A DNA stretch of 64,000 nt from Octopus vulgaris (Eukaryota): contig OX597831.1 of the NCBI GenBank assembly GCA_951406725.2, positions 73,036,001 through 73,100,000 of the forward strand, written 5' to 3'. Positions 19,948-48,998 of this stretch are shown piece by piece (position 1 is the first letter of the stretch; every line of letters begins with the position of its first letter). The notes beneath the pieces are model-generated. The model was not told the origin of the DNA. It saw only the letters and a program-made list of their open reading frames with translations, and made no database searches. Both the position numbers and the translations under genes were made by a program.

Positions 19948-20130
19948 AGTTAATCCAAACAAGAAAACACAAAAAAAACACAACAACGCGAGGACGTGGA
20001 ACAAATAAAGTATTATTGGACGCTCAGGAAAGAAGGGAAGAAGGAGGGTTTAACGTTTCGAGCGGAGCTCTTCGTCGGAAACATAGGAGAAGGAAAGATC
20101 CAGAGAAGGGAAGACAGAGGAAAAAAAATA
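19948..20130 (-). mobile_element. Penelope-like non-autonomous fragment at (TA)n
   Basis: Near-identical to 34245-34380; both abut (TA)n and carry a hammerhead motif. Confidence 0.65.
20048..20082 (-). ncRNA. Minimal type I hammerhead ribozyme motif (CCGACGA core variant)
   Basis: Minus: GTTT-CCGACGA-A-GAGC TCC GCTC-GAAA-CG-TT-AAAC. Confidence 0.6.
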
Positions 20131-20185
20131 TATATATATTTCTTTACTACCCACAAGGGGCTACACACAGAGGGGACAAACAAGG

Positions 20186-20226
<41 letters not shown>

Positions 20227-20879
20227 TCATCATCATTTAATGCCCACTTTCCATGCTGGCATAGGTTGAACAATTTGACTGAGGTCTGTCAAGCCAATAG
20301 GTTGCACCAGGCTCCAATCTGATACACACACACACACACACATGGTGAAAATGGAACTTTAGGGGTGACTCATTATCAATATTGGCTTCTGTGGAAATGG
20401 ATAGAAATATCAATAAAGAAACTGGTTTCTGCTTCTTCTTTCTCCTTGATCCGAGAACAAACAATATTTAGTTTGTTGGCACCAACAAACAGAATGTATT
20501 TACTAGGAATGAAAGAGGATAGGATGTTCGATTGACAGTGTAAAAACAAGTTGACAAAAGACGGTGAGTTATGAGGAATAAGAAGCGCTTACTTGAGCAG
20601 AGTTCTTCCTTCATCAAAGACAGAATTTTACACAAGAAAAGTAATCCTCTTTTTATATGTTGTAACTAAATAGAAAAACTGATAAGGTTAACATCCTAGA
20701 GCAAGTTGGGGAGAAAATAAAACCCAAACCAACTGAATATCTTTTGTTAAACCCTCTCGGAATCACTTATCTTTCTAGGCCAGACAAATAATCAGAAAGA
20801 TGCAAGACTGTTTTTCATGGCTGCAACTGAGGTCAGTTAATATCTTATTCTAATAGGACATGAGCTATACTATAGCTAT

Positions 20880-20917
<38 letters not shown>

Positions 20918-43995: not shown

Positions 43996-44043
<48 letters not shown>

Positions 44044-46404
44044 TACACACATACATATATGCACAAACATTAATAGCAAGGTCACCTTCCCTAATGTGAA
44101 TATACAAAATTGCCAGTAGAGAGAGAGAGAGAGGATCACAAATGCATGAAAGGTTGCAAAGAAAAATGGCAAAGAAAGGAAAACATAAAAAAAGCTGCAG
44201 TGACTGAAATGTCAAAGACAATTCCAGACAAATCCATCACCGATGCCATCTGTGTGGTTTTATTACCTGCTGAAGCTAAAACAGTCCCACATAGAAACCA
44301 AAATAAGGTAACATTATAAACTGCATCTCAGATGTGGTTGGCAGTAAGCAGATGCTACTGACGAACACTAACAGGGCAGAAATGCACATCTAGTCACCTA
44401 AACTCCTGCTGCTCAATGGCTTTTTCTCTGCTACTGATATATTTTTGTGTTTTTAAACACTGCACCTCCATTAGAGACAGTATCTTCAGACAAATACAGC
44501 AGTGAATATGTGTTTACATGATGTGTTTATGTTATGTATGACACACAACGGACGTAGAGGGCCCTGAATAGTATTAGCATCTTTGGTGTCTGGCAGCTGC
44601 ACCTTGCCAGGGATGGTCAGGTGGACAGGCATCCCTGGTCCTCATTCAACTCCTTATCTCTCATTTGATGGGTCCTGGCGCCACTCCCCAGTACCCTCCA
44701 CTTCAGCTGGTGAGCTAAATCAAATGAAGGAGGGTGTTAATACTGCAACAGTAGGTAAAAGACTCTGGGTAAGGCTTCATAAGAAGCCACTGGCTAGGGC
44801 AAAGGAGGAACCTAACCAGTTCAACGACCCAGTATTTGCAGCCAAGGTGCAGCTCAAGTAAAGGCATACAGTTGTGGCTAACAATTTGGAGAGGAATGGG
44901 CACCGCCAAACTAACTATGATAAATTGAGGATGACGAGAACCAGAAGAGAACCCACACGGAATCAACCATTGCCCAGGTTACCATTCAAAAAGTGGACAG
45001 GCCTCAATTTTGCTGACTCATGGAGGGAAACAAATGACCAAGAGAAGAGGTTGCACATCAACAAATGTCCCAATGACCACAAAGTCAAGGGACAGGAAGG
45101 GAGGGCAAGACACAAATTGGCCATTGAGGGTCCACATGGCTGATTGTTTTTCCTAAGTGTTTTAGGCATCCATGTAGTGTCAGGTTGACATAGATACCTT
45201 GCTGGTCCTCCTGACCCTCAACCCAGTGGAACATTCAAGATGTTGCAGCTGGAGGACAGAAGTGTGCTACCCCAGCATGGGCTGTTTATATTTTATTTAA
45301 AGATCCTGAAAGGATGAAAGCTAAAGTTGACATTGGTGGGATTTGAACTCAGAGAAAGGAGAGCTAGAACAAATATTGCAGCGAAGCCAAAATGCTACTC
45401 TAACAATTCTGCCAATTGACCATTTGATATGGTGAGTGGCACTCGACATTACTTTCTGGGAGTGGCACTCAACATATTACCTGCCATAAGTGACACTCGA
45501 GATTATCTGCCATGAGTGACATCAGGCACACATGAGAATACACAATGTAATAAACCAAGACATGTTAATTAACATTTACCACCACCACCACCTATAATGA
45601 AAATTAATTATCTAAATGATTAATCCTGATTAATAAAAAAAGAAAAGGAGATAACACCAAAATGAATCAAATAAGAACTGTAGTGGGGGAACTTTGGCAA
45701 TGTGGAGATAACTCCAGCTATGTTTCAGTCTAATTAACCCTTATTAGTAAGAAAGAACAAGACAAATATAAGGATTTTTTCTTTCTGATGAACACCAAGT
45801 GGTGTAATGTCTAATTCTCTGTGCAATATACATGACAGGAGTTCAGGTGGCTAAAGTGGTAGGAAATCAGGAAAACAATCACAAGGTCAGCAATTCATAC
45901 TCTGTAGCTGCAGAGGGGAATTGAGAATTAGATAATTTTTAATTAGTTTAGTCAAGTGGACACGATTGTGTACATGGCCTTCCCAGGCTCCCAGAGACCA
46001 ACACAGTTAATGTTCCTCTCAAAGAGGTGCAAATGAACAACTGCAGTAGAAAAGAAAAATAGGAGCAGAGAAAGAATTCCAGTGGGTCGACTTTCTGGGG
46101 GTAGAAGGACTGGGGGAAGGACTCAGTGGGTGGGCAGAGAGGCATGAGTGTAGGTGACCCAAGATGAGTCTACTCCAAAGAGCTGAGGCCAGTGGTAGTA
46201 GAAGTTCAAGATGTCAAATAATTAAATAATGGGATATAAAGGAGCACAAGATCACAGTGGTATTTTGGTGAACATATATAAATTGACACACTAAGCTAGG
46301 CTGAGGAGGTCTAATTAGATAAGAAACATGTCTATAACTGTCACTTTTGCTGCTAATACAGATTGTGCTTTTTGCCAACATAAAAATTTAATTTTCTGAC
46401 CCAC

Positions 46405-46803
46405 TGCTCTTGAGGAGACCTGTTGAGTCAAGTACGACAACACCAACATCAAAATAAAAATCAAATGTAAATTGTAGCTAAGATACCCGTGCCGGTGACA
46501 CGTAAAACGCACCCTCCGAATGTGGCTGATGCCAGCACTGCCTGACTGGCATCCGTGTTGGTGACACGTAAAAAGCACCAACCAATCGTGGCCGTTTGCC
46601 AACCTCCTCTGGCCCCTGTGCCAGTGGCATGTAAAAAAGCACCCACTACACTCACGGAATGGTTGGCATTAGGAAGGGCATCCAGTTGTAGAAACACTGC
46701 CAGATCAGACTGGAGCCTGGTGCTGCCTCCTGGCTTCCCAGACCTTGGTCGAACTGTCCACCCCGGAAAACAGACGTTAAACGATGATGATGATGATGAT
46801 GAT
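46405..46803 (+). mobile_element. Retroposon family D copy
   Basis: Conserved motifs and long (GAT)n tail. Confidence 0.8.
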
Positions 46804-48960
46804 TAATTCTAAATTTTTGGATATTATCTCCTTTTTTTTTTTGTAAGTTTTTAACAATTACCATATTTTAAATATTTTTGGCATATGTCATCGTTTACAT
46901 CATCATCTACCTGTATTACAGGTAAATTAACTGGAGCTATTTCCCATAACCCTTTAGCATTGAAACTGGCCATTTTGAGCCGAAATATTTATTTGTTTTA
47001 TGTTCAAACCAGTCAGATTTGGTTTTTCCCACCTTCCCTACAATGCCATTTTAAAATAAACAATCACATCCTCAAAATCTCAAAGCTATGAGATAATGCA
47101 AGAATAATACAATAGAATGTGAATAAATAAGCATCACAATTGACAGAGTCATCGTCAAATGTCCGTTTTCCATGCTGACATGGGTTGGACGGAAGCTGGC
47201 ATGAGTTGAATGCCAAGGGGTTAAAAGTCACTTGTGTGTGTGTAAGTGAACAAACGAAAGGAAATAATACTCAACACATTTGGTAAAAACTGAAAGAAGC
47301 CTGTCGTATATATTTTCAATAACAACTTGACTCAGCTCAACATGACTTGAGGTTTTTTTTTTTTTTTGGTGGGGTGGAGCACATAGGACAGGTCCATCTC
47401 ATCAGATGCTTAGAGCAGAGTAGAAGTTTCAAGGGAAATTCAAGATGGCTTCTAGGTGTTAGGCCTCTATTGGTCAGTTCAGGTCATGTGGTATAAATAC
47501 TATAAAAGTAACACCGGATACTTCCTTTATTTTTAGGTCCACATGTTCAGACAGGATGTTGGCAGTGAGCCTCTTTGTTGTAAAACACAGAGTAAGTCCA
47601 ACAGCCTTTAGTATTCTGTTCTAAGTAATTATTCCATGTTACTTTGAACAAGTAAAACCAAAATGTGTACACACACACACACACAGAGGCTGCCTATGTG
47701 TTGACAGAATCATTCCAGCTCTCTATGCTCTGAGTTTGACCCTTTAGCCCTTTAGATTGCTCTGTTAACTGAAATGCTTATTTATTCAGATTGTTTTGAA
47801 TTAGTATAGTGCATAATGGGGTAAAGATTGTTTGCCAACATAACATGGTAGTCCTGGTTTAGGATGAATGTTGCTGTAATTTAGCCAAAGTACTGTTGCT
47901 GAGTGTCTCTCGTTGAGATTTACAAATAGTAATTTTCTAATTTATAGTGCATTATGTTATAACTTTGAGATTTCAATGATGTGATTGCTAATTTCGAGAA
48001 TATCAGCACATAAAAAGCACCATCCGATTGTGGTTAATGCCAGCTCCTCTGGCCCCTGTGCCGGTGGCACATAAAAGTACCAACTACACTCTCGGAGTGG
48101 TTGGTATTAGGAAGTTGTATTCAGCTGTAGAAACACTACCAGATCAGATTGGGGCCTGGTGCAGCCTCCTGGCTTCCCAGACCCCAGTCGAACCGTCCAA
48201 CCCATGCCAGCGTGGAAAACGGACGTTAAACGATGATAATGATGATGATGGTAGGAGTGAGACCCCAGATCTGGCTGGTTTGGACATAAAACAGGTAAAA
48301 TATCTGGACTTCATATGACTGGTTTCAATGGTAAAGGGTCAAATCCTGCCAACCCTTGCAGGGCTTATAAACTAAAGAACCCTTTAAGTACAGGAGCCAA
48401 CAAGCAACACTTTACCACTGCTGCCATTGATAATAAAGGGTTTTGTTGACAAATCAATCACAAAGGTATAGAAATTTTAAGGCATTGAGGACAATATATA
48501 ACCACCCTCAAGGTTAGTTTATAGCACAGCAGAGCCAAAAATTCTTCAGTGACTCCTAAAACTAATTGCATGAGCACCACAAGAATTGTTGGTCGCCAAC
48601 TGAATAGATGTGCAGCATCCTCTGCCAGCAGCCTGGAAGAACTGGAACTAAAATGTCAAAATTAAGAGGTCAAGTACGTAAGGTCAAAGGTTATGGAGAG
48701 ATGAGGAGGGGTGGGGCAGAAGGCTTTTCAACAGCAATGAGAGAAAAATGGGTTTGACTGATTGATTGATTGATTAACACACACACACACAAAGCACCCA
48801 CAAACATATACACACAAAGACATGCACACACACACACATGGAGAAACAAGTATACACACACAAAAATATGCATTCACAAAAAGCGCACGTGTATGTATGT
48901 GTGTGTGTATATATGCATTTTTTTTCTTCCTTGTTTCTCTCCGTGTTTCTTTTCTGTGTA

Positions 48961-48998
48961 TCTTTCTGTCGAAGAGCGTAGGCTCGAAACATAAAAGA
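48961..48998 (+). ncRNA. Minimal hammerhead-like motif (CUGUCGA core variant)
   Basis: TCTTT-CTGTCGA-A-GAGC GTAG GCTC-GAAA-CA-TA-AAAGA within a ~170-bp element (48920-49095); other copies inverted at 43578-43745 and split at 63240-63610. Confidence 0.5.

Follow-up and report, generated by a model that had tools for sequence, protein, structure and literature searches.

Metazoan Penelope-like elements carry minimal hammerhead ribozymes (HHRs), for which the available text of PMC4209133 describes an extra base, dimers, a helix III that is palindromic and, in Schistosoma, about 1,300 hits with a U3-A8 pair. According to the accessible part of PMC11167929, cleavage by one Penelope HHR takes place with its protein and is partly rescued by the C3G/G8C exchange. 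Penelope HHRs, the U3-A8 swap and rescue at the 3-8 pair are already published, and the phenomenon as a whole is largely covered by the portions of PMC4209133, PMC3088659 and PMC11167929 that were available.

We analysed a stretch of 64,000 nucleotides from Octopus vulgaris (contig OX597831.1, positions 73,036,001 to 73,100,000; hereafter the window), which is microsatellite-rich, has a GC content of 37% and belongs to a genome of 2.8 Gb, and in which six TA-targeted repeat families had been predicted to carry hammerheads with altered cores. Our analysis favours, with fair though not full confidence, the view that these motifs are minimal type I HHRs in the 3′ ends of families inserting at TA, and that they would act as slow self-cleavers needing a second copy and, probably, the element's protein. 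As judged from their sequences, the window families likely still cut RNA weakly. The motifs are of a known kind, with some core variants that we did not find in print and an unusually clean natural covariation, their activity being predicted. Neither a report of natural G3-C8, A3-U8 or A6U families nor a cephalopod HHR study was found in the open-licence literature.

Covariation of the 3-8 core pair

The seven sites were labelled by family as A (20048 and 34343), B (28500), C (26170), D (22666), E (43806) and F (48966). All have the type I minimal layout, with helix I, a seven-base core, helix II, GAAA, helix III and an N-U-H site. The cores stand where they had been claimed: CUGAAGA at 28500 (B) and CUGUCGA at 48966 (F) on the plus strand, and UUGAAAA at 26205 (C), GUGAACA at 22709 (D) and CCGACGA at 20078 and 34373 (A) and at 43839 (E) on the minus strand. 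Positions 3 and 8 are complementary in every core, and helix I (4-6 bp) and helix II (3-5 bp) are present at all seven sites, as anticipated. The core box, GAAA and the U-H site were found framed by helices I and II throughout, with deviations at U4 or A6 in A, E and F and at 3-8 in C and D. In A, D and F one additional base follows A9, before helix II. The palindromic or near-palindromic helix III applies to all family-typical copies; the window F copy is itself broken there because ACAU replaces the family's ACGU. The window D and F copies have one damaged helix each, that of D being a mismatch at the first helix I pair, and the window E copy has a G-U pair within helix II. The U-U at 10.1-11.1 in B is a family state. 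The helix II loop of family E switches between GGAA and GCAA, both GNRA, and its central helix III base between A and U. Most single genomic copies, including the window D and F copies, are probably decayed. Three HHR copies had been overlooked: a B copy at 26612 (minus strand), the second E arm at 43860 (plus strand) and a decayed F-type copy at 43701 (minus strand).

A window descriptor in which only G5, A9 and GAAA were fixed gave six matches, four of them with a Watson-Crick 3-8 pair, while 40 block shuffles gave a mean of 0.125 Watson-Crick matches and a maximum of 1. Families B, D and F escaped this descriptor, B through the U-U at its helix II base and D and F through the damage to their window copies. 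We then used a genome sample of 99 evenly spaced 10-kb stretches (990 kb); all scan descriptors required GAAA and the N-U-H site, and the first 990-kb scan left positions 3-9 free. It returned 33 matches, 15 of them with G5 and A9, and all 15 were Watson-Crick at 3-8. Eight shuffles yielded four G5/A9 matches in total, one of them Watson-Crick. With a looser descriptor, 3-8 was Watson-Crick in 19 of 22 matches; the controls, five shuffles and a reversed sequence taken together, gave 10 of 37. Pooling 368 sequences gave 274 distinct motif matches, which formed 17 multi-copy clusters and 44 singletons. Every multi-copy cluster had a Watson-Crick majority at 3-8 (13 C-G, three U-A and one G-C), and 27 of the 44 singletons were paired at this position.

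Genome-wide pattern counts, for each of which the reversed-pattern control gave 0, were 4955 exact matches for A, 4621 wildcard matches for B, 1507 for C (up to two mismatches allowed), 5648 for D (5329 in the search with core wildcards) and 1650 wildcard matches for E, while F gave 15 BLAST hits in the 990 kb, a few A cross-hits included. In the wildcard listings, core positions 3, 4, 7 and 8 were open and the first 100 matches listed were tallied by eye. Among these, C3-G8 was found in 98 for B and G3-C8 in 95 for D. For E, 90 were C-G, nine C-A and one G-G, the C-A copies being CpG decays, and C stood at position 4 in 82. Family C had U-A in 16 of 17 clustered copies, which were chosen by a pattern that included the core, and U at position 6 is the family state of F. 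The cores are family states and not copy noise; family-level cores retain the 3-8 pairing, and none of the families found is fixed for a mismatch.

[quoted passage not shown] Long A copies (30 loci retrieved with an upstream pattern, 23 of them parsed) had U4 in 23/23, and 15 read CUGACGA. The C4 of the abundant A subfamily is a derived state, since the long A copies and F both have U4. U4C is the majority state in four of the 17 multi-copy clusters. The description of the core changes as compensatory holds in part: C and D swap the 3-8 pair, but A, B, E and F keep C3-G8, the U4C of A and E and the A6U of F have no compensating partner, and B is canonical. The expectation that a CUGANGA search would miss most copies was confirmed, as it recovered only two B copies among the ten in the window; the strict consensus does not hold overall and is matched only by B and the long A copies.

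All four Watson-Crick pairs (C-G, U-A, G-C and A-U) were found at 3-8. Two loci, L060 with A3-U8 and L117 with G3-C8, carry their motifs behind endonuclease pieces 59% identical to that of an intact U3-A8 element described below. They are homologous to each other (73% over 630 nt, from the endonuclease to the TA end), and a helix I pair is exchanged between them as well. A wildcard search of the L060 type gave 146 matches, with A-U in 94 of the 100 listed, and a second motif-context search gave 148, of which the 100 listed comprised 85 A-U, 10 G-C, four A-C, one U-C and no G-U. Related Neptune elements thus carry three different 3-8 pairs (U-A, A-U and G-C), each change taking two substitutions, and this comparison of related sequences is cleaner covariation evidence than the cluster counts. 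Taken together, covariation at 3-8 goes well beyond what chance would give. The proposal that covariation implies selection for catalysis is sound as regards the catalytic fold, for the selection of which the 3-8 covariation among related elements argues; cleavage itself is a prediction.

Carrier elements and insertion at TA runs

Family F loci were found by a search with an endonuclease piece from the 990-kb sample. At 27 of 30 endonuclease loci the F motif lies 0.3-1.2 kb downstream of the GIY-YIG domain on the same strand. One locus (L260) has a 1047-codon frame, in which RVT_1 scored above the cut-off and the GIY-YIG match was sub-threshold. The translations of L260 and L220 have a DKG motif, a Cys-rich linker ahead of the endonuclease and a CCHH-type endonuclease, and at L266 the F motif stands at both ends of the frame, 4.3 kb apart. 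The window F copy (48919-49097, plus strand, a TA run on each side; HHR 48961-48998, core CUGUCGA 48966-48972 with A6U) is 96-97% identical to the end of an ORF-bearing copy (L253/L263). The F repeat forms the end of a Penelope element of the Neptune type, the clade being read from motifs and not from a tree. At L268/L332 the CA-rich upstream part of family A (1.7 kb) runs into an endonuclease piece that is 53% like that of F. The assignment to Penelope-type minimal hammerheads was borne out, with F, and at one locus A, tied to Neptune-type proteins; B-E are likely Penelope-derived too.

In a young Neptune-type element (L220-L229), many 811-codon frames are intact, and each of the two terminal repeats holds a U3-A8 motif whose helix II is 2 bp long. 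The protein of this element is only 27% like that of F, and no copy of the element lies within the window. An upstream 495-codon frame with no Pfam match (e.g. in L222 and L223) overlaps the 811-codon reverse transcriptase (RT)-endonuclease frame in a different reading frame, and in L227 there is a single frame of 984 codons. A, F and E copies beside the intact U3-A8 element were considered as its ends and rejected, as they are separate insertions in shared TA runs. A link of family A to the endonuclease of this element at L270/L328 was likewise discarded, the other arm bearing its own U3-A8-type end, and the RT at L281 is a separate piece and was rejected as a partner. Other hammerheads with helix II arms of 30-60 nt, some with U4C, occur at L068, L081, L113, L242, L314, L159, L271 and L362; the motifs at L068, L081 and L113 sit behind pieces resembling a different endonuclease type.

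The insertions display the Penelope hallmarks of 5′ truncation, an adjacent inverted copy, a tail at one end and partial tandems (C, and F at L266), and each of the families B, C, D and E forms in the window an inverted pair whose two 3′ ends are unequal. The families end at TA runs, as had been claimed, A and E at fixed distances: in A, 27 of 30 loci have a TA run at 122-142 nt from the core, and the distances in E cluster at 72-77 and 143-147 nt, with a background frequency of 0.31 for a TA run within 160 nt. For B, an internal TA run distorts the corresponding figure; of the D loci, half are passengers. The window D copy, a palindromic insertion, was brought there by a larger repeat. Since this repeat carries D at 15 of 30 D loci, the D pattern count includes passengers. 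Family C is a 362-nt unit that often forms head-to-tail tandems, with a spacing of 360-365 nt and up to four exact motifs consecutively. Its head-to-tail joint was found in 4/4 sequencing runs (contigs, none recorded as RNA), although genomic tandems yield the same joint.

The first A copy (19948-20127, minus strand) is a 5′-truncated 3′ end in a TA run, with the HHR at 20082-20048, the core CCGACGA at 20078-20072 (U4C), an extra A, a 4-bp helix II, helix III ACGU and a predicted cut after 20052. The second (34245-34380, minus strand; HHR 34377-34343, core 34373-34367) is truncated immediately 5′ of helix I. Family D forms a palindromic insertion (22587-22917, minus strand) of a direct arm and an inverted arm with a longer tail, its HHR lying at 22714-22668 with the core GUGAACA at 22709-22703 (G3-C8), an extra G, a 5-bp helix II and helix III AAUAUU. 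It is a passenger of the larger composite repeat (21340-22983), the same surroundings recurring at 15/30 D loci. Most of a C unit is present at 26001-26330 (minus strand; HHR 26211-26170, core UUGAAAA 26205-26199 with U3-A8, helix III ACGCGU, GUC site, predicted cut after 26176), and the inverted 5′-truncated arm of this insertion (26328-26510, plus strand) stops in a TA run at the longer of two 3′ ends. Family B has an inverted arm with a short 3′ end (26551-27257, minus strand; HHR 26618-26568, canonical core 26612-26606) and a direct arm with a long 3′ end or tail (27266-28630, plus strand; HHR 28494-28544, core CUGAAGA 28500-28506, U-U at 10.1-11.1, GUA site, predicted cut after 28538), the upstream part of which is microsatellite-like. 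The palindromic E insertion (43770-44000) has one HHR per arm, with U4C, a 3-bp helix II and a GNRA loop; the minus-strand HHR lies at 43845-43806 with its core CCGACGA at 43839-43833, and the plus-strand core at 43860-43866. A decayed F-type 3′ end that has lost helix III (43550-43750, minus strand) retains the core CUGUCGA at 43701-43695.

Several further features were observed. At 25975-28660 a single TA run holds a stack of the B and C insertions, both of them inverted pairs, and such stacking of different families was common in the fetched loci. The composite repeat carrying D is about 2 kb long (window 21340-24936), carries the D insertion and microsatellites, and has a start that recurs at about 22980 and may be Helitron-like; it is also present at L162, L169-L171, L176, L179-L182 and L184-L189. 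A SINE-like repeat some 420 nt long, which is abundant and often shares its TA runs with Penelope ends, has copies at 16101-16498, 31943-32374, 33405-33809, 43146-43577, 49114-49523, 59708-60122 and elsewhere. The window also contains a 3.4-kb TA/TACA array (51166-54563) with a long inner stretch of nearly pure TA, an exon-sized match to a mitochondrial carrier protein (PF00153; 3660-3770, minus strand) and the 3′ part of a non-LTR retroelement frame with a weak zf-RVT match, behind an ATT-type repeat (61315-62016, minus strand).

Possible function of the motifs

In the mechanism that we favour, the element would be transcribed in tandem or by read-through, and two motifs in the transcript would pair via the palindromic helix III and cut slowly, probably assisted by the element's own protein. 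Selection would keep the fold during RNA-mediated copying, and because of this a change at position 3 would spread only with its partner at 8. U4C, A6U, U17, U-U or a helix II of 2-3 bp would lower the rate and leave activity in place. Reverse transcription, primed at nicked TA runs, would start roughly 50-270 nt downstream of the motif, and short truncated ends would retain the motif because insertion would be primed downstream of it at TA runs. The predicted dimers of B, C and E adopt a two-hammerhead fold.

A number of results weigh against this interpretation. The predicted dimers of A, F and partly D were without the hammerhead fold, and U4C and A6 changes reduce activity in the available part of PMC3088659. 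Insertion by HHR mutants was normal in the one reconstituted Penelope system, where no RNA-seq reads started or ended at the cut site either, as far as the accessible text of PMC11167929 goes. The protein link of A amounts to one locus (L268/L332), the junction of which is shared by L295; a search of 1.5 kb at 30 loci each yielded no protein partner for B, C and E, nor was one found among 30 loci for D, the latter judged by shared upstream extent only. As to the covariation, 17/44 singletons were not Watson-Crick, many of them resembling chance matches; seven large clusters came from loci selected by pattern or protein, and three two-copy clusters are inverted pairs at a single locus. Copies within a family are not independent, and independent 3-8 swaps number about four to five.

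The fold might instead be kept as a protein-binding or template-positioning structure, with cleavage a side effect or no longer present in certain families, A, E and F for example. We regard this as rather unlikely, yet it retains weight because the available part of PMC11167929 reports insertion without cleavage and no reads ending at the site. It would account for rate-lowered families being among the most abundant (A with 4955 and E with 1650 matches, and F with its 15 BLAST hits in 990 kb, a few A cross-hits included), and it agrees with cleavage being dispensable for insertion in vitro (PMC11167929, same portion) and with Naiad elements spreading without canonical HHRs (PMC8557442). However, catalytic-site features recur in lineages whose proteins are only 27% alike, the scan recovered G5 and A9 without their being imposed (though GAAA and N-U-H were required by the descriptor), and 3-8 covaries as the active fold demands. 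That the variants are neutral founder accidents, the 3-8 pattern reflecting a few events and the selection of hits, seems to us improbable. The small number of independent swaps, with family counts repeating one event, and the visible decay of the window copies speak for it; the scans, however, left positions 3 and 8 unconstrained, no multi-copy cluster had a non-pairing majority, and the U-A, A-U and G-C states of related Neptune elements each required two substitutions. Chance matches in AT-rich, repeat-rich DNA are a negligible prospect, although the helices are short, the folding energies of the window monomers are unremarkable (z from -1.7 to +1.2) and no hammerhead family appeared among the 150 Rfam matches listed of 370 for the window, the search having yielded miRNA matches driven by microsatellites. 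The chance reading is already refuted by the shuffle controls and the family-level results, with thousands of copies against zero in the reversed-pattern controls and a motif position that is fixed within the element ends.

If the motifs are, as we favour, slow ribozymes, a further proposal can be made, which we offer as speculative. The genome may represent a natural mutational scan of the core, in which Penelope lineages fixed all four 3-8 pairs and rate-lowering changes, U4C (4/17 clusters) and A6U (F), were favoured because a slow, protein-gated ribozyme would leave sufficient RNA uncut for use as the insertion template. The U4C subfamily of A would have arisen from a canonical ancestor and then become very abundant.

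Comparison with described systems

The role of HHRs in Penelope elements is puzzling in that they are near-universal there, yet dispensable for insertion in the one test-tube system. This genome offers matched natural pairs (A-U/G-C, U4/C4 and A6/U6 sisters) along with intact protein-coding copies, and about half of its families escape searches by consensus.

Family C resembles the non-LTR retrozymes (available parts of PMC7229834 and bioRxiv 10.64898/2026.07.22.740005) in its short head-to-tail unit with one type I HHR each, the unit being 362 nt long with no Penelope protein found beside it. What sets it apart from the retrozymes described in those parts is a U3-A8 motif of the minimal kind, together with inversions in the Penelope style and ends at TA; any circular RNA of C is putative. 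Family F and the related intact element match the Neptune clade (PMC8557442) in an RT with DKG, a Cys-rich linker and GIY-YIG at the C-terminus, as well as in microsatellite targeting, inverted 5′-truncated copies and a tail; the Neptune assignment uses the motif definitions of that paper, and B-E were found without a protein partner. The PAc Poseidon HHR of Anolis (PMC11167929, in its available part) is similar in having the HHR in a terminal repeat, an AT-rich target and two 3′ ends that give rise to a tail. There, G3-C8 was engineered and its cleavage assayed, whereas here G3-C8 is natural and known from sequence.

The natural core variants described by Perreault et al. (2011, PMC3088659) include, in the text available, the U3-A8, U4C, A6 change, U10.1-U11.1 and 2-bp helix II that we observed, but as rare single cases and with A6C, whereas here such variants are the norm in families that number thousands of copies. 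The minimal HHRs of metazoan Penelope-like elements, including Cercyon of Schistosoma mansoni (Cervera and De la Pena 2014, PMC4209133, as far as its text was available), share with the present motifs the type I topology, a short helix I, a base between 9 and 10.1, a palindromic helix III such as ACGU, a frequent U17 and the U3-A8 swap, and they likewise occur mostly as solitary truncated copies and inverted pairs, with many families per genome. In contrast to those, which in the same portion of that paper include no family fixed for G3-C8, A3-U8, U4C or A6U, each of these states is fixed in families of the octopus genome, and helix II is reduced to as little as 2-3 bp.

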